Source: an uncultured Verrucomicrobiota bacterium (GTDB lineage Bacteria > Verrucomicrobiota > Verrucomicrobiia > Limisphaerales > AAA164-E04). From it: a DNA stretch of 64,000 bases. The notes under the pieces were generated by a model that had not been told where the DNA came from, did not search any database, and was given only the letters and a program-made list of their open reading frames with translations. The position numbers were made by a program, and so were the translations under genes. The first letter of the stretch is position 1. Each line of letters opens with the position of its first letter. Of this stretch, positions 48,468 to 58,004 are shown one piece after another. The stretch is from NCBI GenBank assembly GCA_964342405.1, contig CAYFGX010000033.1:3152-67151 (forward strand), in the 5' to 3' direction.

Positions 48468-49688
48468 ATGAGCACTCCCCTCAGACTCCGTCACTACTTC
48501 ACACACTTTGCGTCTCTCGGAGGAGTGCAATCCATCATTCGCGCCCACCTCGACCTCGATCCCAAACGGAATCTAGACTCCAGCCTCCTCGCCTTCTTCG
48601 ACTCGCCCGCCCAATGGGAGAGAACCGAGAGAATCGATGGGCTCGGTCTCACGGGACGGAACAGTATCGCACAAACTCGTCGACTCTTCAGATCGCACGA
48701 ACGAGATGCCCATTATGATATCCCCATCTTCCACGATCTGTGGGGACTGAGTTTCTTGGGCGAATTCGACCGTCAACCAAAGCGCCGCATCGGGGCCATC
48801 CATTCACAGTGGCCCCACTTGGACTTTCAATTACAGCAACTACGCGGAAGCCTCGACGGAGTGTTCTGCGACAGTCAAGCGATCGCAGACTATGTCACCG
48901 AACACTGGCCCGAACTCGGTCAAGAGCGAGTCAAACATCTCCCGGTTCCTATTCAAATCGCCCCGGAGAAGGATTTCACTAAACGCCAATCTCTCAAAGG
49001 TCGTCGAGTGGTTCTCGGTTTCGTCGGACGGTTGGATTACGCTCAGAAGAGAGTTGACCGCTTTCCCCCATTGCTGAAAAGCCTCCAGGGCAACGGGATC
49101 GATTGCGAGTTGCAATTCCTCGGAACGGGTGACGCGAGCGAGTCCCTTCCCCAACGCTTCGCACCGGACGCACCAGTGAAATTTTGGGGTCGCCAAAACG
49201 CTCCCAAATACTGGGAGATCATGAAGCATTGGGATTTCGCGATTTACACCAGCGATCACGAAGGATCTCCACTCGCCATGCTAGAAGCCATGAGCGTAGG
49301 CAACATCCCGCTGTTTCCGGAAATCAAGAGCGGGGGAGATCTCGTCGTAAAACGAATCGACCCTTCCTTACTCTATCCATCTGAGAATTGGGATCGACTG
49401 GCACAGGTGATCCAAACCTGGGCGAAGCACCCCGATGAGTTGCTTCACAGTCATCGCGTTGCCTGCCGCGAGGAAAGCCTCAAACATTCCCCGGAGCGTT
49501 ATCATGAGAAGTTTATGACCTTCCTGGAAACCACTGTTTCAAGCCCGAGGATTTCGAGAGACTTTGCAACACCTCGCCCATTCTACGTCCGAGACCGCAT
49601 TCCTTTCGGGTTGCTCAAACGCCACTTTCCGAAGGCGTTCTACCAAGCCAACCCAATCCGCCCCTCCGTTGAACCGGATCAGAAATAA
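48468..49688 (+). CDS. Glycosyltransferase, GT-B fold (GT4-like)
   Basis: LGFVGRLDYAQKRV, YTSDHEGSPLAMLEAMSVG, SGG. Start 48468, or 48429/48432. Confidence 0.88.
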   Translation: MSTPLRLRHYFTHFASLGGVQSIIRAHLDLDPKRNLDSSLLAFFDSPAQWERTERIDGLGLTGRNSIAQTRRLFRSHERDAHYDIPIFHDLWGLSFLGEFDRQPKRRIGAIHSQWPHLDFQLQQLRGSLDGVFCDSQAIADYVTEHWPELGQERVKHLPVPIQIAPEKDFTKRQSLKGRRVVLGFVGRLDYAQKRVDRFPPLLKSLQGNGIDCELQFLGTGDASESLPQRFAPDAPVKFWGRQNAPKYWEIMKHWDFAIYTSDHEGSPLAMLEAMSVGNIPLFPEIKSGGDLVVKRIDPSLLYPSENWDRLAQVIQTWAKHPDELLHSHRVACREESLKHSPERYHEKFMTFLETTVSSPRISRDFATPRPFYVRDRIPFGLLKRHFPKAFYQANPIRPSVEPDQK

Positions 49689-50923
49689 CGCCTGAGCGAG
49701 AGCTGAATAAAGCTATCGTCACTAAAGAACGTCGTCAGATCACGCTCAACGACGTTCGCAAACCATTGCCCCTCGACCGACAAGAAGTAATCGGAACCTA
49801 AGCGTCGCTCAAACTCGAATCTCAAGGACGAAGCAGAAGTGTCGTGATCGTAGACGCCACCCGCCAGCAAGGCAGTGTCTTGAACATCATTCAAGGCGAG
49901 GCGTAAACCCGCAAAGATATCTCGGTTAAAGGGCGTGAGCGCCTCATCCGTCCGACTGTCGTAGTGATACTCAGAGAGCAAACCCAGATCCGAGTCGCCT
50001 CCGAAAATTCCATAAATCGTATACTCAAACCCTGAAACCACCGCTCCGAAGTGCTGGCCTCGACCGTCTCGGTAGATCCCTTCAAATTTCAGCAACCAAG
50101 CGTCCCGTGTCCATTGAGCATCGACTCCCACTTGACTCATCAGGTTGTAGACGGGGAGGAGCACGGGGTCTCGGCCCGGAACAATTCGAGGCATGAAGAG
50201 CGGGTCCCGACTCGTGCCACGAAAAAACCCCACGCCAAGATCCACATCACCAAGGGTGTGAGACCATCGCAAGGCGATGTCCGGATGCCACTCCTCAAGA
50301 TTCGATTCGTAAACCGGATCTCCGGTATCCACATAAGGATCCCATCGCAGTCGCCCTTTCCGCCCCGGGAACGTGCGTTCACGAAAATATGGGAGATAAA
50401 AGAGATCCACTACACCAGATGAATCCGTAATCCAAGTAAAGTTCACCATCGGCTGCCCTAGTTTGTCCTCGAAATCTAGATTCTCCACCAAGTCGGTTTG
50501 ATTAACCACATCAACCAGATGCTGTGACTCTGTCACCCCCCAGAACACTTTGCTCACGCCTAGGCGCAACTCCCATTGGTCGGCCACACGGTGAAAGTAG
50601 AATTCACGTAAATCCAAATGGGTTCTATCAGAATCGATCACATCATACCGCCCAAACGGAGTCATCTCAAATGCCCAATTGCCCTCAGCCCACTCACGAT
50701 AAAACTCCGGCTCCAACGCGAACGAGAACGCCGCATCCCCCTGCTGCCCCGGATGTTTAGGCGGATCAGCGAAGCCCCGAAACTCTGTTTCAAAGAATCC
50801 TGAAACATCCCATTCGTCCCAGAAAGAAGGCTCTTTCTCCTCAAGGACTTCACCCAGTAGCGACCCGTTGAGGGAGGCCATAAGGCTTAGAATGAGTCCC
50901 GCCTGACAGATCGATTCTCGCAT
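49679..50923 (-). CDS. Outer-membrane beta-barrel-like hypothetical protein (MMPL/LolA-like operon partner)
   Basis: Signal peptide; DLREFY, LRLG..KVFWGVTE..HLVDVVNQTD; alternating beta strands; terminal F. Confidence 0.8.
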   Translation of the reverse strand: MRESICQAGLILSLMASLNGSLLGEVLEEKEPSFWDEWDVSGFFETEFRGFADPPKHPGQQGDAAFSFALEPEFYREWAEGNWAFEMTPFGRYDVIDSDRTHLDLREFYFHRVADQWELRLGVSKVFWGVTESQHLVDVVNQTDLVENLDFEDKLGQPMVNFTWITDSSGVVDLFYLPYFRERTFPGRKGRLRWDPYVDTGDPVYESNLEEWHPDIALRWSHTLGDVDLGVGFFRGTSRDPLFMPRIVPGRDPVLLPVYNLMSQVGVDAQWTRDAWLLKFEGIYRDGRGQHFGAVVSGFEYTIYGIFGGDSDLGLLSEYHYDSRTDEALTPFNRDIFAGLRLALNDVQDTALLAGGVYDHDTSASSLRFEFERRLGSDYFLSVEGQWFANVVERDLTTFFSDDSFIQLSLRRYF

Positions 50924-50927
50924 GTTT

Positions 50928-51752
50928 TTAGCGAATTCGTTTCAGTCGGTTCTTGTCGAAGTCCCGATCCTTGAGCCCCTTGGTAAAAACATATTCACTC
51001 CAGACCAACTCCGTTTCTTTCCCTGTCTGGACATTGCTCATCGTGAAAGAATCGGCACGCCAGTAGTTCTTCCCGTATGTTTTGTAGCCCTTCGCAACGA
51101 AGGTCTTAAGCAGCTCACCTTTCCGGTCGTAGTAGTCGGTTCTCAATGTCCGATACTCCTCCTTATCAATCCACGAAATCTGTTTGGTATATCCTGATTT
51201 CTTATCGACTGGAATCCGCTCAATGACATAGCTCGGCATGCCATCCACCGCCTCTTCCTTAAGGTAGCGATACGTGTACTTTTCTACTTCTTGCGAAGAC
51301 AAATCCTCATAAGCAAACTCACTTCCGACAAAAGGGCCCGACTTGTTACTCGAGGAAATCCTCTTCACCCGCTTGAGCGCTGGGAGATACAACCACTGGT
51401 CATCATTACCGACCTTCTTGGTAAACACCAAGAAAGCGGTTCCCTTCACATCTCGTGGCTCCCTAAAGACGATCAACCGCTTGTCGCCTTCGTCTTGTTG
51501 TTCGAGCGCCTCCATGCGCATCAAGCGCTTACTCGCTTGACCATGGCGGTTCTTGAGAACCATTTCTGCATCTGCTGACCAATCGCCCCAGCCCTCGTCA
51601 CGTTGATCTGCTGCCTCAGCAATCTTCAGGCCCTTCTGTTCGGGAGTATCCGTCGAAGCGAAAGGTGCAGCGGCTGAAACCCAGCCAGCCTGAAGTAAGG
51701 CGACCGCAAGTAAGAGTGTCTTTTTCATCGTCATTTTCTTTCCAGTTTTCAT
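50928..51752 (-). CDS. Outer membrane lipoprotein-sorting protein (LolA-like)
   Basis: PRDVKGTAFL, DDQWLYLPALKRVKRISS, FVGSEFAYED, YYDRKGELLK, FDKNRL. Confidence 0.9.
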   Translation of the reverse strand: MKTGKKMTMKKTLLLAVALLQAGWVSAAAPFASTDTPEQKGLKIAEAADQRDEGWGDWSADAEMVLKNRHGQASKRLMRMEALEQQDEGDKRLIVFREPRDVKGTAFLVFTKKVGNDDQWLYLPALKRVKRISSSNKSGPFVGSEFAYEDLSSQEVEKYTYRYLKEEAVDGMPSYVIERIPVDKKSGYTKQISWIDKEEYRTLRTDYYDRKGELLKTFVAKGYKTYGKNYWRADSFTMSNVQTGKETELVWSEYVFTKGLKDRDFDKNRLKRIR

Positions 51753-54146
51753 TTAAGATAAGGCGGATTCGAGATGTTTCTCAGCAGCGGGAGCGACTGG
51801 CTCCTCGGAAGTTTTCTTCGCGCGACTCTTCCCATCGAAGGTAAGCAACAATGCTGGAAGCAGAATAAAGTCAGCAATCAAGGCAAAGCTGATGACAATC
51901 GCTGTCAGTTGTCCCATCCACGAGTTCAATCGAAAGGGCGAAAAGCTCAGGACGCTAAAACCAATCACCAAGATAATCGTCGTTGTCACCAGGGCGGTTC
52001 CTACGGAATGGAAGGCATAACGAATCGCTCCCTCGGCATCGAGGCCCTGCTCCCGTCGAGCCCGTATGTACTTCGTCAGGAAGTGCACCGTGTCGTCCAC
52101 CACAATCCCGAGCGTCATCCCCACCACCACGGAAAGGGACATCCCAATATTCCCAACCAAAGCTCCCCAGGCACCGAAGCCCAAGATCGCAGGCACAAAG
52201 TTAGGCACCAAACTAAGAGTCCCATACCGTAGGCTCCGCAAGGCAAAGGCGAGAATTCCGGATATCAAGAGCACGGCCAATGCTGTCCCGCCCAGCATGC
52301 TGTCGATATTTCGCTTTGAAATATGAGCAAACATCACGGACGGGCTAGACGCCTCAGCAATCATGTACTCCGGCAGGTTTTCATCCTGCCACGCCGCCGC
52401 CTTATCGATAAATCGGCGAAGATTCGCGGTGGAAATATCTCCCAAAGCGACCGTCAGGCGACTCGCCGATTTATCAACGTTGATTTGATTATTGAGATCC
52501 AATCCATACGGCAACGACATCTCGAAGAGTAGGAGATACTGCGCCGCAAGATCCCGCGACTCCGGCATTCTGTAGAACGCAGGATCATCCGCGTTTAGAT
52601 TCTTGTTGAGGCGCTTCAGTGTATCCGAAAGCGTGACCACCTGCAGCACTTCCTCTTGCTTACGCAACCACTGCGTGAATTTATCGAGATTATTGAGATA
52701 CTCCGGTTCACTGATGCCACCGCTCTCAATGGCCCCTACTGAATACTCGAGGTTATAGATTCCCGTCAGTTCTTCTACCGTGAAGTCCGTATCATTTCGG
52801 AAAGTGATACTCTTGGCGAAGTAATCCACCCAACGATCGTCCAAGCTAATCTTGGGAATGAATGCAGCTAACAAGACGACAACAGCCACTGATCCCCACA
52901 AGGTAGAACTCCGGCGACGCACAAGGAAGTCCACCCATGAGTCAAATCGCGTCCCCGACCGCGCCACGGATTTGCCAGCACGCATCGGAAGCACAGCGAG
53001 CAACGCCGGCAGAAAGGCTATGGAAAAAAACCATGCCGCAATCACACCGACGGCCACGACATTGCCGAGATGCCGAAACGGTGGGGCATCGCTAAAGTTC
53101 ATGCTCAGGAAGCCAATCGCAGTCGTCAGACTCGTGAGGAAAACGGGCTGAAAATTCACCCGCAAGCTCTCAACAATCGCCTCGTTCTTCGATCGACCGT
53201 GGCGCATGAAAAACATCAAGCTAACGAGAATATGAATACTGTCGGCGATGGCCAAGGTAGTGATGATGGTCGGTGCGCTTGCGGACGGCGGTGTGATAGG
53301 AAATCCAATGGATCCCATGAAGCCCATAGCAACGGCGGATGAAAAGACAATCACGAGGAAAGCCCCCACGGTGCCTGAGACAGACCGCAACAGGAACATG
53401 GTCGTTACGATAATACCCAAATACATCAACGGCACAACCGTGCTCATATCGCGAATACTCGACTCAGCAAACGCGTTATTCAGCATCACCATTCCCGTCA
53501 AATAAACCTTATACTCAGGAAACTGCTCGTTGAACGCCGCGACGAGTTCTCGGGCCGCAGCGGCGGCTTGAACCGCCTCGTTAGGATCCTTTTCCGGCAG
53601 GGTCAGAATGGCATTGATCCCCACGACGCGCGGGCTATCCCCTACGAGCCGATCCCTCAACATGGGCTCAGAGAGGGCGACCCGCTGCACCTCCTTGAGT
53701 TCCTCCGTCGACAAGTCGTATGGAGACTCCACAAGGTCCCCCACAATCAGGTCATCCTCTTCTGCATACGAGTGCTGAAAATTGGTCACAGAGTCCACTC
53801 GCGTAGCAAAAGGAAGTTTCCAGGCTTCTTCAGTAACAGTCTGTACGGCAGCTAGGAACTCCTGCGAGAAAACCTCATTCTCCGAATGCTCCAGCACGAA
53901 GAGAATGTTGTCGTCCTTGGTGTAGATGGCCTGCAAAGCCTCAAAGGATTTCAATTGCGGATTATCATCTCCAAAGAAGATCCGATAATCGTTCTTCATC
54001 CCAAGCTTTCGCGCGCCGGATCCCACACCAACAACGATCGCCAATGACACCAGTAAAACCAACCATCGCCAGCGAATCACCCAGCGACCAAAAGGGGCTC
54101 CCCACCCATCTTCCAAAGCTTCTTCTTGTTTCTCTAAATCACTCAT
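51753..54146 (-). CDS. MMPL/RND family efflux transporter
   Basis: Two TM bundles with ADSIHI, TSLTTAIGF, GIVVDDTVHF; two large periplasmic loops. Start trimmed to ATG 54146. Confidence 0.92.
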   Translation of the reverse strand: MSDLEKQEEALEDGWGAPFGRWVIRWRWLVLLVSLAIVVGVGSGARKLGMKNDYRIFFGDDNPQLKSFEALQAIYTKDDNILFVLEHSENEVFSQEFLAAVQTVTEEAWKLPFATRVDSVTNFQHSYAEEDDLIVGDLVESPYDLSTEELKEVQRVALSEPMLRDRLVGDSPRVVGINAILTLPEKDPNEAVQAAAAARELVAAFNEQFPEYKVYLTGMVMLNNAFAESSIRDMSTVVPLMYLGIIVTTMFLLRSVSGTVGAFLVIVFSSAVAMGFMGSIGFPITPPSASAPTIITTLAIADSIHILVSLMFFMRHGRSKNEAIVESLRVNFQPVFLTSLTTAIGFLSMNFSDAPPFRHLGNVVAVGVIAAWFFSIAFLPALLAVLPMRAGKSVARSGTRFDSWVDFLVRRRSSTLWGSVAVVVLLAAFIPKISLDDRWVDYFAKSITFRNDTDFTVEELTGIYNLEYSVGAIESGGISEPEYLNNLDKFTQWLRKQEEVLQVVTLSDTLKRLNKNLNADDPAFYRMPESRDLAAQYLLLFEMSLPYGLDLNNQINVDKSASRLTVALGDISTANLRRFIDKAAAWQDENLPEYMIAEASSPSVMFAHISKRNIDSMLGGTALAVLLISGILAFALRSLRYGTLSLVPNFVPAILGFGAWGALVGNIGMSLSVVVGMTLGIVVDDTVHFLTKYIRARREQGLDAEGAIRYAFHSVGTALVTTTIILVIGFSVLSFSPFRLNSWMGQLTAIVISFALIADFILLPALLLTFDGKSRAKKTSEEPVAPAAEKHLESALS

Positions 54147-54179
54147 TTCGGTTCGGTAAGTCCCAACTCTCACGTCAGC

Positions 54180-54197
54180 ATACCAACTAGTCGGTAT
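54180..54197. promoter_or_regulatory. Putative TetR operator, copy 1 (upstream of MMPL operon)
   Basis: ATACCAACTAGTCGGTAT, an 18-bp palindrome with one mismatch, overlapping a TATGCT -10 on the minus strand. Confidence 0.8.
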
Positions 54198-54270
54198 CTT
54201 GCGAGAAACGGGTTTAAGTTAAAGTTAAATCTAACGTAACGGGTTGCGTCGCTCCTTCAGCAACGATGCT

Positions 54271-54726
54271 TTAGATGCGTTGTTCCTCAAGATCGTAAAC
54301 GTCAAACCAGCGATAGACGGGTCGATTCTTGGGGACAAACTGAGGGATATACCCCTCCAAGAACTCTTGAGCAGCATCCGGAAGTTCGGAAATCTTGAGC
54401 TCTCTCAATTTGTTATTCCACTTAATGATCTCAATCCGCTCGCGCGATTTCGCATTCTGCTCGATCCAGGCAGCAACTTCATTGTCATCTGCTCCAGTCG
54501 CCACGAATTCTCGAAACGCATTGGGGTCAATCTCGGCAAAGGTGAGGAACTGATTATCGAGCGGGCAATCGAAGTGGTAGTCGGAGTTTGTCCCGGCAAT
54601 CACCGCTCGGCACTTGTCCAACATTCGCCCCGCGATCACGTATCCTGCCAAGGTTTCCCGCGGACTCCTCGGAAAGGTCTGACTCAGGTCCAACGCGAGC
54701 AGCTTCAACTTTTCTTCACTTGTCAT
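54271..54726 (-). CDS. DUF5069 family protein
   Basis: DLSQTFPRSPRETLAGYVIAGRMLDKCRA..G...DYHFDCPLD. Confidence 0.85.
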   Translation of the reverse strand: MTSEEKLKLLALDLSQTFPRSPRETLAGYVIAGRMLDKCRAVIAGTNSDYHFDCPLDNQFLTFAEIDPNAFREFVATGADDNEVAAWIEQNAKSRERIEIIKWNNKLRELKISELPDAAQEFLEGYIPQFVPKNRPVYRWFDVYDLEEQRI

Positions 54727-54797
54727 ATCTAACTTCCAACATCATGCGCTGCCCGATTCCATTCCTCAAGTTAAACGCTCATGCAAGAAAGCAAACT

Positions 54798-55106
54798 TTA
54801 GAATGCTGTGGCGATGATCCGATCACTTTGCCCCCGAATGAGCGCTTGACGTCGAACATACTGTCTCGCCTCTCTCACTTTGAGCTCCAAAATTGCCGGG
54901 AACGAGGTTTGTGGTTTGCCTGACAACCAAGCCAGGCTTAGAGCTTCGCTTCGGGCTGCTTCGACCATTTTCTTTTCCAAGGTCTCAAGCGGCACGGCAC
55001 CCGTTGCCGGAGCCAGATTGGATGTGCGATATGTCGATTTCGAGTTCGCCAATGAGTCTCGATGTCGTTGTCGATTGTTTGCTGCTTCATTCTGTGCGTT
55101 CTTCAT
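54798..55106 (-). CDS. Small hypothetical protein (AARSEALSLAW...LELKVREARQYVRRQ)
   Basis: ATG with purine-rich GAGAAAG upstream and an operator copy 40 nt upstream. The C-terminal half resembles small Verrucomicrobia proteins from recollection, unverified. Confidence 0.7.
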   Translation of the reverse strand: MKNAQNEAANNRQRHRDSLANSKSTYRTSNLAPATGAVPLETLEKKMVEAARSEALSLAWLSGKPQTSFPAILELKVREARQYVRRQALIRGQSDRIIATAF

Positions 55107-55145
55107 TCAGTTGTCTTTCTCGTGTTTGCTCGTCGTTCGCATTAA

Positions 55146-55163
55146 ATACCGACCAGTTGGTCT
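55146..55163. promoter_or_regulatory. Putative TetR operator, copy 2
   Basis: ATACCGACCAGTTGGTCT, identical to copy 3 over 19 bp (AATACCGACCAGTTGGTCT). Confidence 0.8.
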
Positions 55164-55181
55164 TTTTGTTTCAAAAAAAAT

Positions 55182-55787
55182 TTAAGGGCGGAGCGTTTCC
55201 ATATACTTCATCAAGGCCGCACCGGATAAGGCCATTATATTCGGATCTTGAGCGTTCTTCGCCGTGCCGATTGTTCCTGCGAAACAGGCCACCATGAAAG
55301 CGGCGATCTCTTTTGGATTTACCGCACTGTCGATGTTGCCAGCCGAAATCCCTCGAGTAAACGAAGCCTCAATCGCTCCTCGCCACGCCGCGTAGATCTG
55401 CTCGAGCCGCAGCCTGAATTCCTCATCCAGTGGAGACATCTCCTGCGCCAGGTTATTCAATGGACAGCCCTGACAAAGCCGGTCCCCACTGCATTCCTCA
55501 GCCATCCTCGTCATGATGTCGGTAATGGTCCGAATTGGATCATCGGACTGGTTGAGGGGATCCACCCAGACACTCCTCACCTCGGGAAACAGAATCTCGT
55601 CTACCACCGCCAAGCCCAGGTCCGCTTTACCGCGAAAATGATGAAACAAAGCCCCTTTCGTGGTCGACGCTTCAGCAACAATCCGATTCAAGCTCGCACC
55701 TTGGAATCCGCACCGATAGAACTCATTGAAGGCGGTCTGCATGATCCGCTTTCGAGTGTCTTCCGATGTTGTCGTTTGGGTAACCAT
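55182..55787 (-). CDS. TetR/AcrR family transcriptional regulator
   Basis: TRKRIMQTAFNEFYRCGFQGASLNRIVAEASTTKGALFHHFRGK HTH; GCPLNNLAQE. Confidence 0.95.
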   Translation of the reverse strand: MVTQTTTSEDTRKRIMQTAFNEFYRCGFQGASLNRIVAEASTTKGALFHHFRGKADLGLAVVDEILFPEVRSVWVDPLNQSDDPIRTITDIMTRMAEECSGDRLCQGCPLNNLAQEMSPLDEEFRLRLEQIYAAWRGAIEASFTRGISAGNIDSAVNPKEIAAFMVACFAGTIGTAKNAQDPNIMALSGAALMKYMETLRP

Positions 55788-55816
55788 AATCGCTTCCGCT
55801 TTTGTTATTGATACTA

Positions 55817-55834
55817 ATACCGACCAGTTGGTCT
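55817..55834. promoter_or_regulatory. Putative TetR operator, copy 3 (autoregulatory), inside the tetR promoter
   Basis: ATACCGACCAGTTGGTCT sits in the 17-nt spacer and -10 region between minus-strand TTGACA (55842-55837) and TATTAG (55819-55814). Confidence 0.8.
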
Positions 55835-55851
55835 GCTGTCAACTCACGATT

Positions 55852-56493
55852 CTAATTTTTTGAATCTCGCCTTTCAAATCGTTGCCAGCTTTCAAGATCG
55901 TCGATGTCCTCCAAGGTGTCCAAGAGTGCGATCGACAGGTCCATTTCCCCAGCGGCCGATTCGGTCTGGGCCAAGACACGATCCGTGCTCCAGTCAATGT
56001 CCTCAAACAAAACCGGATACCATGCGTTCATGCCGATCAACCAATAACCACCATCCTTTGCCGGGCCGACCACGACTGAGTGCTCGTCGAGAGCTCGATT
56101 CGCTTCCCGGATTTCCTCCTCTCCCACATCCGGACAGTCCGATCCGATCGCGATCACTCGATCCGCCCCCCGTTGAAACGCCTCCTTGAATGCACGGGCC
56201 AATCGCTCCCCCAAGCCCCCATCGCCCTGCGCTATTCCCAACCAGCCCTCCTGGATCCACCGCGAACATTCGTCAATCGCTTCGTCTGGCGTGAAGCGAA
56301 GCTCCACATCCGTCAAAGTGTTGATCCGCGACAAGAGTCCCTCGACAAGCTGCGTGTAGATCCTGCAAGCCCTATCGTCGCCTAAGGAGGCAGCCAACCG
56401 CGTTTTCACAAAGCCGGGTCGTGGAGCCTTCAAGAAGACAATGACATGCGCTTCGGGAGGCGAATGCACCTGATGGAGAGAGGATGAGGTCAT
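55852..56493 (-). CDS. TIGR04282/DUF2064 family glycosyltransferase-like protein (CofC-like fold)
   Basis: IVFLKAPRPGFVKTRLA, QGDGGLGERL, IGSDCP, VVGPAKDGGYWLIG, DIDD. Start trimmed to ATG 56493 because ATG 56508 lies inside a terminator stem. Confidence 0.9.
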   Translation of the reverse strand: MTSSSLHQVHSPPEAHVIVFLKAPRPGFVKTRLAASLGDDRACRIYTQLVEGLLSRINTLTDVELRFTPDEAIDECSRWIQEGWLGIAQGDGGLGERLARAFKEAFQRGADRVIAIGSDCPDVGEEEIREANRALDEHSVVVGPAKDGGYWLIGMNAWYPVLFEDIDWSTDRVLAQTESAAGEMDLSIALLDTLEDIDDLESWQRFERRDSKN

Positions 56494-56525
56494 AAAAAAA
56501 CGCCGCATCTTTCGATACGGCGTTT
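56494..56525 (-). terminator. Rho-independent terminator after the second DUF5069-like gene
   Basis: Minus strand AAACGCCGTATC-GAAA-GATGCGGCGTTT continuing into a T7 run. Confidence 0.85.
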
Positions 56526-56546
56526 CAAAGAATCGAGAGATCTAAA

Positions 56547-56990
56547 TTACTTGATCTCGGCGTTGTAGAACTCCAACCAGTCGTCGAGGTTGTTCAAGTT
56601 CACTGCATCATGAGGTGCATCGGGACCATCTTCGATTTCGTTGGCTTCGAGGATAGACTTGCGGGTCTCATCAGCGTGGATGTAACCAGCGATAGCAGAG
56701 TTCAGGCTGGTGACGCTTCCCTTGTCCAATTTCACACCTTCTTGGCTCTTCACCCACGACTCAAACTGAGGATAGGTTGGCTTCGAGCTAGAGATGTAAT
56801 CCAAGGTCGCATCCTTGTTCAAACCAAGTCCGTCGAGAACCATTTGGTCGTAACCGGCGCCACATCCTGGGTAACCGTCTGCGATTTTTCCGGCAGCTTC
56901 CAAAGAAACTTTTTGCCAGAATCGAGGGAGATGAAGCACGCCGAGAGGGCCTGCTACGCCGGAACTAATCAGAGGAACAATCTTACTCAT
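56547..56990 (-). CDS. DUF5069-like protein (second, divergent paralogue)
   Basis: PLISSGVAGPLGVLHLPRFWQK..L...G...GY..CG.GYDQMVLD.LG; start ATG 56990. Confidence 0.72.
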   Translation of the reverse strand: MSKIVPLISSGVAGPLGVLHLPRFWQKVSLEAAGKIADGYPGCGAGYDQMVLDGLGLNKDATLDYISSSKPTYPQFESWVKSQEGVKLDKGSVTSLNSAIAGYIHADETRKSILEANEIEDGPDAPHDAVNLNNLDDWLEFYNAEIK

Positions 56991-57026
56991 TTCAATATCC
57001 TTAGTGTGATTTGGAACTACGGGCAA

Positions 57027-57055
57027 AAACTAGCCGAAGGCCCTACAAGGGTCAA
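57027..57055 (-). promoter_or_regulatory. Sigma70-type promoter for the 56547..56990 gene
   Basis: TTGACC (57055-57050), 17 nt spacer, TAGTTT (57032-57027). Confidence 0.55.
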
Positions 57056-57098
57056 TGTGTTTGTTGAAATTGCCTACAAATCTGCCGGTCCATGTCGC

Positions 57099-57641
57099 TT
57101 AAAAGCGCGGACCTGAGAGTTTTTGCTGCAACTGCACTTGGAACTCCATGACATCTTCCTGCGAAGGCTTATAACCGGGCTCGTCCGGTGAGAGTCCCAA
57201 GCGTCCCATCTGATCCAGACTCCATCCCGCGCTCTTGCCATCAGAGAACGTCACGTTTCCACTCGCCAAGGCCCCAGCCCGGGTGATTTGGTCAACCGTC
57301 ACCGAGACGTTCGCTGCGCCGCCCGGCTCTCCCATCCCCATTGGATCAGGCCTGGCGGGTGCGGGCTCAGGTGCAGGAGCCGGCTCACTGGACGGCATCC
57401 CCGGCTCGGGCACTCCCGCTTCCGGTCCGCTTGGTCCTGGCTCAGGGGTAGGCTCGGGTTCGGGCTCCGGCTCAGGATCCTTTGGCATCACCCCCAGATC
57501 ATCTACCAGAAAGCGCACCTCCATATAGGTCACCGAAATCCCGAACTCCGAATCTAGCTTGGATTGGATCTCCGAGAGTCCTAATCCCGATTGGATCCAT
57601 TCCCGCACTGTCGCTTGTTGCGTCTCGTCCAAATTCATCAT
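57099..57641 (-). CDS. Hypothetical protein with two small domains joined by a Pro/Glu-rich linker
   Basis: N-terminal VREWIQSGLGLSEIQSKL..EFGISVTYMEVRFLVDDL; PEPEPEPEP linker; C-terminal V.VDQITRAGALASG.VTFSDG...W.LDQMGRLGL. Confidence 0.8.
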   Translation of the reverse strand: MMNLDETQQATVREWIQSGLGLSEIQSKLDSEFGISVTYMEVRFLVDDLGVMPKDPEPEPEPEPTPEPGPSGPEAGVPEPGMPSSEPAPAPEPAPARPDPMGMGEPGGAANVSVTVDQITRAGALASGNVTFSDGKSAGWSLDQMGRLGLSPDEPGYKPSQEDVMEFQVQLQQKLSGPRF

Positions 57642-57685
57642 TTCAATCGTTCACTCTAAATCTCAATCACCACCCGCTCACGCCA

Positions 57686-57901
57686 TCACTCGGGTTGGTC
57701 CAGGTAACTACCAGGCGGAAGATCGGCGTAGCCTTCGAAATGATCAGCCCGCAACGGCTCCTCGATCGCCATCTCTTCGTTATACCATTTCCCAAGGTCC
57801 ACCAACTTACACCGTTGGCTGCAAAAGGGACCGTACTGGTGCTCTAACCACAGACCTTGCTTCTTGCAGGTCGGACACTTCACCGGAGGATACTTACTCA
57901 T
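57686..57901 (-). CDS. yacG: DNA gyrase inhibitor YacG
   Basis: VKCPTCKK...[21 protein letters not shown] zinc-finger signature. Confidence 0.92.
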
Positions 57902-58004
57902 GTCGCGCGATCAAACAAAGAAGGAGCGTGGTGTGTTTCGGAACAGATTGCAATTCGAAGTTTCTGCGGATGCAGATTCTCAGTTCGAGACGCTGAAGAA
58001 CTGT

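Follow-up and report, generated by a model that had tools for sequence, protein, structure and literature searches.

We analysed a 64,000-nucleotide (nt) stretch of contig CAYFGX010000033.1 from an uncultured Verrucomicrobiota bacterium (the window, assembly GCA_964342405.1), in which three copies of an 18-bp palindrome accompany a gene for a TetR-type repressor (tetR; 55182–55787, minus strand). The three palindromes are very probably the operators of this TetR, which would use them to control its own gene, the p102–DUF5069 gene pair and an operon headed by an MMPL transporter gene. A first-pass annotation had also read them as operators of the adjacent TetR. That reading is supported by positional conservation in close relatives, by co-occurrence of palindrome and tetR across phyla, by overlap with promoter elements and by the decay of a site in one relative, G002.

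Three probable palindromic operators in the tetR locus

All genes of the locus lie on the minus strand. In order of transcription they are a DUF5069-like gene, a DUF2064 gene, operator 3, tetR, operator 2, p102, DUF5069, operator 1 and the genes for the MMPL transporter, a LolA-like protein and p414, with the three operators lying within 1.65 kb. Each operator pairs two half-sites, ATACC[G/A]AC, around a 2-bp centre (ATACCRAC-NN-GTYGGTAT; core ACC[G/A]AC-NN-GT[C/T]GGT). The sequence reads ATACCAACTAGTCGGTAT at 54180–54197 (operator 1) and AATACCGACCAGTTGGTCT at both 55145–55163 (operator 2) and 55816–55834 (operator 3), the latter two being identical over 19 nt. On the gene (minus) strand these are AGACCAACTGGTCGGTATT ahead of tetR and of p102, and ATACCGACTAGTTGGTAT ahead of the MMPL gene. 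The window holds three exact matches to ACCRACNNGTYGGT, and these are operators 1–3; together with direct reading of the sequence, they bear out the copies and positions first annotated. Allowing one mismatch raises the number of matches to four, against 0.33 expected, and none of 100 shuffled sequences reached four. Operators had been placed 30–40 nt upstream of minus-strand starts, which is about right: the measured distances are 28 nt for tetR (ATG at 55787), 38 nt for p102 (ATG at 55106) and 33 nt for the MMPL gene (ATG at 54146, a start backed by orthologue alignments). Operator 2 lies 18 nt past the tetR stop codon.

Specificity rests in the 18-mer with its ATA/TAT flanks and not in the bare 14-mer. 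A symmetrized 18-bp weight matrix run over the whole 8.5-Mb genome returned four sites at 28.0–30.5 bits, and the next best scored 17.2. Three of the four are in the window (operator 3 scores 28.0 bits and operator 1 scores 30.5 bits) and the fourth is at C17:84400 on another contig. The bare 14-mer pattern, in contrast, gave five matches genome-wide and its reversed control also gave five, indicating little specificity. One 14-mer match, C26:60692, was taken as chance since it lies inside a 536-residue open reading frame and falls below the matrix's 12-bit listing threshold. Across 49000–58000 the matrix found no site above 4 bits beyond the three operators, confirming the early statement that the DUF5069 gene has none of its own.

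The product of tetR is a 201-residue protein, assigned through Pfam, PDB matches and hhalign. Its N-terminal helix-turn-helix (HTH) matches PF00440 (TetR_N; residues 15–60, E = 1.1e-10), its C-terminal domain matches PF16925 (TetR_C_13; E = 1.7e-14), and it carries a CQGC motif (C105, C108). Structures 3bru and 3qbm match over the full length at about 2e-13, 3bru being the best solved relative. The hallmarks of the TetR family are found together at this locus: a TetR-type HTH, an all-helical C-terminal domain, and a palindrome near the regulator gene that overlaps a promoter.

The palindromes are conserved within the lineage and across phyla

The TetR is present in four of 40 relatives. In G008 and G004, which belong to the same genus (TetR 73% and 65% identical, respectively), gene order is kept and exact sites occupy the same three positions; phylogenetic footprinting, a check suggested at first pass, finds the motif conserved upstream of orthologues. 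G011, from another genus (TetR about 55% identical), has tetR and the MMPL, LolA-like and p414 genes without p102–DUF5069, and it has exactly two sites. Hence, the p102–DUF5069 unit brings an operator of its own. In each of the three spacer alignments the sole conserved block is the operator, joined at the tetR promoter by TTGAC. Operators 1 and 2 appear as islands of identity, and operator 3 is identical in G008, G004 and G011 amid diverged spacer. In G002 (L013 9495–9575) the site has decayed to AGACCAACTAGTTAAT, and tetR carries an in-frame TAG and has ATA where the others have ATG. Operator and repressor appear to decay together in this genome; its contig ends inside tetR, which leaves the case incomplete.

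In a separate region of G004 (L027; C1:3605747–3605815) matches to a related palindrome, AACCAACCGGTTGGTA / AACCGATCGGTTGG, overlap one another, and about 50 bp off lies a second site of this kind. The exact 16-mer match at C1:3605800 was rejected as part of the regulon, as it lies upstream of a different TetR-like gene. L027 is best described as a paralogous TetR system with a near-identical type of operator.

For the wider comparison, 80 loci were retrieved via conserved TetR peptides, not DNA, and removal of four duplicates of close relatives left 76 independent loci, in which the motif was counted with up to one mismatch. It lies at most 120 nt upstream of tetR in 62 of the 76, and a second copy lies 18–59 nt past the tetR stop in 31. 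Matches elsewhere in these loci number 12 in 774 kb (0.016 per kb). The loci span at least six phyla (Verrucomicrobiota, Acidobacteriota, Gemmatimonadota, Chloroflexota, Myxococcota, Planctomycetota and others), and those lacking the strict motif have recognizable variants at the same place. At E ≤ 1e-10 the databases contain more than 3,000 relatives of the TetR subfamily as a whole, whose operator, CATACCGACyGGTCkGTAT, is nearly invariant. One carrier of the subfamily, Pelagicoccus mobilis KCTC 13126 (locus L066), is in culture and has the tetR–operator–MMPL arrangement, followed by LolA-like and p414 genes.

Two groups of loci deserve separate description. In Akkermansiaceae and Roseibacillus relatives (L087, L107, L090, L108, L110, L111 and L052) a TTGCxx -35 is kept and the palindromes are variants, CCGAC-N6-GTCGG or ACAT(T/A)CC-N4-GGTATGT, with the HTH nearly unchanged; this looks like operator drift inside one subfamily. 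In L044 (5963–7412; Verrucomicrobiae) two tetR copies stand in tandem, each with 54% identity to the query, and there are three operators, one ahead of each copy and one past the second.

An 18-bp palindrome can also fold as an RNA hairpin, and two of the three copies in the window lie just past stop codons (those of tetR and DUF5069), where terminators are expected. We nevertheless regard it as extremely improbable that the palindromes belong to another DNA-binding protein, or that they are a dispersed repeat or an RNA hairpin (terminator or processing site), standing beside tetR by coincidence. Across phyla the motif tracks TetR orthologues whatever genes lie downstream, and the genome has four copies only. 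The tetR site is situated between a conserved -35 and -10. No T-run follows the sites, and a terminator scan finds nothing there. That the spacers fold no better than shuffled sequence and that no terminator is predicted point to a protein-binding site over an RNA element, and a terminator or hairpin role thus found no support in either analysis. Moreover, the conserved G/A asymmetry (ACCAAC...GTCGGT) would put an A–C mismatch in the stem and so break a hairpin pair, which fits protein recognition better than RNA structure.

Operator 3 fills the spacer of the predicted tetR promoter

The predicted tetR promoter (55814–55842, minus strand) consists of a -35 TTGACA (55842–55837), a 17-nt spacer filled by the operator and a -10 TATTAG (55819–55814). 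Its TTGAC, two bases upstream of the operator block, is invariant in the four orthologous loci. The layout of TTGACA, operator and TATnnT is seen in 66 loci, and the upstream context across loci reads cTTGACA-nn-CATACCGACyGGTCkGTATnnT. The tetR operator is thus predicted to occupy the spacer of a sigma-70-type promoter and to overlap its -10. Because it fills the space between -35 and -10, a bound repressor would exclude RNA polymerase (promoter occlusion). The first-pass annotation had two operators overlapping promoter elements, and at tetR the overlap has a conserved layout. The geometry at operators 1 and 2 is as at tetR, the promoter-proximal GGTAT running into TATGCT and TATTTA; in G011 the element overlapped at the MMPL gene is a perfect TATAAT.

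A second sigma-70-like promoter, TTGAAA-17-TAGAAT (55849–55877, minus strand), agrees with 10 of 12 consensus positions, overlaps the DUF2064 stop codon and is weakly conserved in the alignment of tetR spacers. If this promoter is used, operator 3 would lie at about +8 to +26 and would have a roadblock role. In many Acidobacteriota and Gemmatimonadota loci among L060–L105 (for example L069, L074 and L085) the tetR ATG stands 6–13 nt past TATnnT, a short distance that suggests leaderless tetR transcripts.

A fourth site and the proposed circuit

The fourth genomic site, ATACCAACTGGTCGGTAT (C17:84400–84417; L014 8401–8418; 29.8 bits), is not mentioned in the first-pass annotation. It occupies a 383-nt spacer between two divergent genes, at 178 nt upstream of one, which encodes a 392-residue protein, and 189 nt upstream of the other, a GH31 glycosidase gene. 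Homologues of the 392-residue protein carry the source label 'aminopeptidase', and a few have a Peptidase_M29 (PF02073) match on record. G008, whose orthologue is 88% identical, keeps the motif 170 nt upstream of it, once more as an island of identity. The fourth site looks like a recent recruitment. A weaker palindrome, AGACAGACAGGTCAGTCT, is present about 15 nt away, on the side opposite the aminopeptidase gene.

From the observed sites, their conservation, their pairing with a tetR gene and the promoter geometry we infer binding, repression, operon boundaries and an inducer, as follows. Each 18-bp site would accommodate one TetR dimer. In the spacer of the tetR promoter it would act by promoter occlusion, resulting in negative autoregulation. 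The second site, past the tetR stop, would place p102 and, by read-through, DUF5069 under control, and operator 1 would do so for the operon encoding the MMPL/RND (resistance-nodulation-division), LolA-like and outer-membrane-type proteins. At operators 1 and 2, where the operator overlaps a TATnnn element, the repressor could occlude a promoter or act as a roadblock to transcripts arriving from upstream. Through the site at C17:84400, the gene for the M29-like aminopeptidase would come under the same control in this lineage. A signal would release the repressor.

Several results weigh against this circuit. Inspection of the sequence and a promoter scan gave no good -35 at standard spacing for operators 1 and 2, so that the mode of repression is uncertain at these two sites, where blocking of transcripts from upstream is just as possible. 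A terminator scan found none separating the transcription units; hence the cluster could be one long transcript with internal operators. Finally, G004 and G011 have both the TetR and the orthologue of the 392-residue protein with no upstream site, the fourth site being restricted to the genome of the window (G000) and G008.

Proteins encoded by the cluster

The first gene past operator 2, p102 (102 residues; 54798–55106, minus strand), has no family: searches of Pfam and NCBIfam gave no match, and it falls in three clusters among 5.8 billion proteins. It is a real protein of narrow distribution. The N terminus is variable and disordered, and a C-terminal helical hairpin (residues 40–101, motif SEALSLAW) is conserved, as judged from the alignment and an AlphaFold2 model; the modelled hairpin is too simple for a meaningful fold search. 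Behind it lies the gene for a 151-residue DUF5069 protein (54271–54726, minus strand; Pfam E = 9.7e-42). The DUF5069 family has about 1,000 representative homologues and one solved structure of unknown function. The model of the window protein has a predicted local distance difference test score of 96, and its fold search returned solely 3omd, itself functionally uncharacterized; no paper on DUF5069 came up in a literature search. In the 71-nt gap between the two genes a site scan and a terminator scan found none, and DUF5069 is probably co-transcribed with p102 across it.

The operon behind operator 1 begins with the gene for a 797-residue HAE3-type RND inner-membrane transporter (51753–54146, minus strand). 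PF03176 (MMPL) matches it in two stretches (E = 1.8e-31), which fits MMPL domains with the 12-transmembrane-segment architecture of RND proteins. Its best solved relative is HpnN (5khn, E = 3.4e-07). Against models of characterized lipid exporters it scores 144 bits for TIGR00921 (cutoff 352) and 94 and 45 bits for HpnN (cutoffs 752 and 1100). By these scores the transporter is an HAE3/HpnN-like RND protein that falls outside the characterized lipid-exporter subfamily (HpnN, mycobacterial MmpL). The gene for a 274-residue LolA-like periplasmic protein (50928–51752, minus strand; Pfam LolA_like E = 9.2e-67; PDB 3bk5 E = 5.8e-89) abuts the MMPL gene. The last gene, p414 (49679–50923, minus strand), encodes a signal-peptide-like N terminus and a C-terminal ...LSLRRYF typical of outer-membrane barrels, and had no match in Pfam or NCBIfam and no meaningful match in the PDB; its PDB matches to major histocompatibility complex chains were spurious. 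The p414 product is a probable outer-membrane beta-barrel partner. At least six other genomes have a homologue of p414 behind their MMPL and LolA-like genes (46–75% identity), and it may be an undescribed outer-membrane component of these RND systems.

Upstream of tetR are a DUF2064/TIGR04282 gene ('arsenosugar biosynthesis glycosyltransferase'; 55852–56508, minus strand) and a weak DUF5069-like gene of 159 residues (56547–57026, minus strand). Both lie directly upstream of tetR in G000, G008, G004 and G002. The 159-residue protein is 88–94% identical across these four genomes, far above its neighbours (DUF2064, about 50%).

The subfamily points to an efflux and detoxification response

Genes of the p102 family and DUF5069 recur with the TetR in other lineages. 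In two further Verrucomicrobiota loci, L057 and L047, remote p102 homologues (motif REAxSLAWSTxYPQL) are the first gene past the second operator and are followed by SRPBCC, thioredoxin and DUF5069 genes; in L056, DUF5069 stands directly after tetR. The link of p102 and DUF5069 to the TetR, drawn at first pass from the window, is thus strengthened by recurrence behind the same operator in two other lineages, and the association is, on these gene orders, independent of the MMPL operon. Behind the second operator in its 31 loci lie mostly efflux systems (MacB/FtsX with ABC and HlyD partners, MFS, and MMPL with LolA-like) and small detoxification-type enzymes (SDR, DoxX, YCII, glyoxalase/VOC, SRPBCC and thioredoxin). 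The gene set of this TetR subfamily points to an efflux and detoxification response.

The first-pass annotation had instead spoken of an MMPL lipid-transport response, in which the TetR would sense a lipid or envelope intermediate and the regulon would be dedicated to lipid export, with the MMPL transporter at its centre. The transporter does match MMPL and, weakly, the hopanoid transporter HpnN, and has as its partner a LolA-like carrier for hydrophobic cargo. At least four further lineages (L034, L053, L066 and L098) share the arrangement of tetR, operator, MMPL, LolA-like and p414 genes. In addition, a fused MMPL/LolA-like protein with a neighbouring porin-like protein is 42-fold up on C28 alkane in Thalassolituus oleivorans (PMC6304351). 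We consider the lipid-export version unlikely even so. The label rests on the MMPL name, whereas scores against characterized lipid transporters are far below the family cutoffs; most TetR relatives with the same operator control MacB/FtsX pumps, MFS, DoxX, VOC, SDR or thioredoxin genes, that is, efflux and detoxification genes; and the operator-controlled units contain no lipid-biosynthesis genes.

The circuit links several unknown genes to one response. It provides a precise operator for a large uncharacterized TetR subfamily that is common in soil and water phyla which have received little study (Verrucomicrobiota, Acidobacteriota and Gemmatimonadota). It also places DUF5069 and the unannotated p102 small-protein family in a functional context for the first time, and gives regulatory access to little-understood modules of MMPL, LolA-like and outer-membrane-type proteins. 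With tetR, operator and MMPL gene also arranged in this way in the cultured P. mobilis strain, the predictions are testable at the bench.

Comparison with known systems

The circuit is of a very familiar kind, and a TetR with palindromic operators is textbook biology and no surprise. In TetR/TetA, QacR/QacA, AcrR/AcrAB and TtgR/TtgABC a local repressor sits by a transporter operon, binds a 15–18-bp palindrome over the promoter, regulates its own gene and is released by a small molecule. The window differs from these classical efflux repressors in that its genes are co-directional and not divergent, in having three operators in so short a span, in units that include two proteins of unknown function and in its remote fourth site.

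The nearest analogue of the window TetR is E. coli NemR (YdhM; nemRA-gloA). Both proteins combine TetR_N with TetR_C_13 (PF16925), and in both systems the repressor gene comes first, its promoter contains a palindrome, and detoxification genes follow in the same direction. Work by Umezawa in 2008 and Gray in 2013 is said to have established TAGACCGACTGGTCTA, upstream of nemR, as the NemR box and Cys106 as the sensor. This box has the 12-mer ACCGACTGGTCT in common with the consensus of the window subfamily, with the symmetry axis displaced by 2 bp and different outer bases in the half-site (ATACCGAC in the window subfamily, TAGACC in NemR). Identity of the two proteins is about 19% overall, BLASTP aligns the HTH only (32% over 57 residues), and the NemR structure (PDB 4yze, E = 9.8e-07) ranks 17th against the window TetR. 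The window TetR was rejected as a NemR; the two are analogues and distant relatives, not orthologues. The window locus, moreover, is without nemA and gloA, has three local operators against one, and has an RND export system as its main target; glyoxalase/VOC genes are found behind the operator in some distant loci only.

The parallel raises the question of the signal. Within the same circuit, the TetR could sense a thiol-reactive electrophile or oxidant covalently at Cys108, as NemR does at Cys106, and govern an electrophile and oxidant defence regulon instead of answering to a lipid or to a classical drug ligand bound non-covalently. We hold this as a tentative possibility, one that the evidence favours somewhat more than a lipid signal. 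The TetR_C_13 domain is that of NemR, and hhalign pairs QGC(108)PLNNLAQEM with SGC(106)LTVKLSAEV of NemR at 96.7% probability, so that C108 aligns with Cys106. An equivalent of Cys108 is found in 78 of 81 subfamily members, a count that is inflated since GC was part of one of the two patterns used for retrieval. GC also stands at this place in 3bru, the best solved relative; the motif may, however, be structural and common to the whole TetR_C_13 family. The second NCBIfam match is AcuR, an acrylate regulator (75 bits, below cutoff), and thioredoxin, glyoxalase/VOC, DoxX, SDR and SRPBCC genes lie behind the second operator elsewhere. On the other hand, the locus has no nemA-type reductase, the overall identity to NemR is low, as given above, and the regulated genes are mostly efflux pumps, for which an ordinary ligand-gated TetR fits equally well. 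The JGI pipeline calls many homologues 'repressor for nem operon', a label that is automated annotation. A broader proposal builds on this one: the subfamily would be the NemR-like thiol switch of an undescribed, widespread electrophile and oxidant regulon, the p102 family and DUF5069, which recur behind the operator next to thioredoxin and SRPBCC genes, would be new defence components, and the MMPL/LolA-like/outer-membrane-type system would export a damaged or toxic hydrophobic compound. Taken as a whole we think it rather improbable, on a par with the lipid-export version.

For the transport module, the nearest published parallel is in T. oleivorans, where TOL_3187/3188 combine MMPL-type RND and LolA-like domains with an unassigned outer-membrane-type protein, a module strongly induced by a very hydrophobic substrate (PMC6304351). 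There MMPL and LolA-like parts are fused, whereas in the window they are separate genes. No TetR or operator is described for that module.

For the operator, the parallel is that of PaaR in Burkholderia cenocepacia, a TetR-type repressor of phenylacetate genes. Its operator, situated between -35 and -10 in several promoters that form a single regulon, was validated by operator mutagenesis and electrophoretic mobility shift assays (PMC2770484, PMC9493321). The PaaR core reads ACC(G/A)ACCGGTCGGTT, with ACCGACCGGTCGGT experimentally validated (PMC2770484, PMC9493321). The operator cores of PaaR (BCAL0210), ACCGACCGGTCGGTT or ACCAACCGGTCGGTT, are the same as those of the window sites and show the same G/A variation, and the window sites conform to the PaaR-type core ACC(G/A)ACCGGTCGGT. 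The proteins themselves are different. PaaR (L168:4165–4770; the BCAL0210 sequence was obtained via a published primer sequence) has a TetR_C_24 C-terminal domain in place of TetR_C_13, and alignment is limited to the HTH (21% identity; hhalign 69%). PaaR responds to phenylacetyl-CoA as its inducer, and the window locus has no paa genes nearby. Orthology to PaaR was therefore rejected, the ligand domain being of another type, and with alignment confined to the HTH the shared operator reflects similar HTH specificity. By analogy, the PaaR operator demonstrates that a TetR-type HTH can bind a sequence such as that of the three operators described here.

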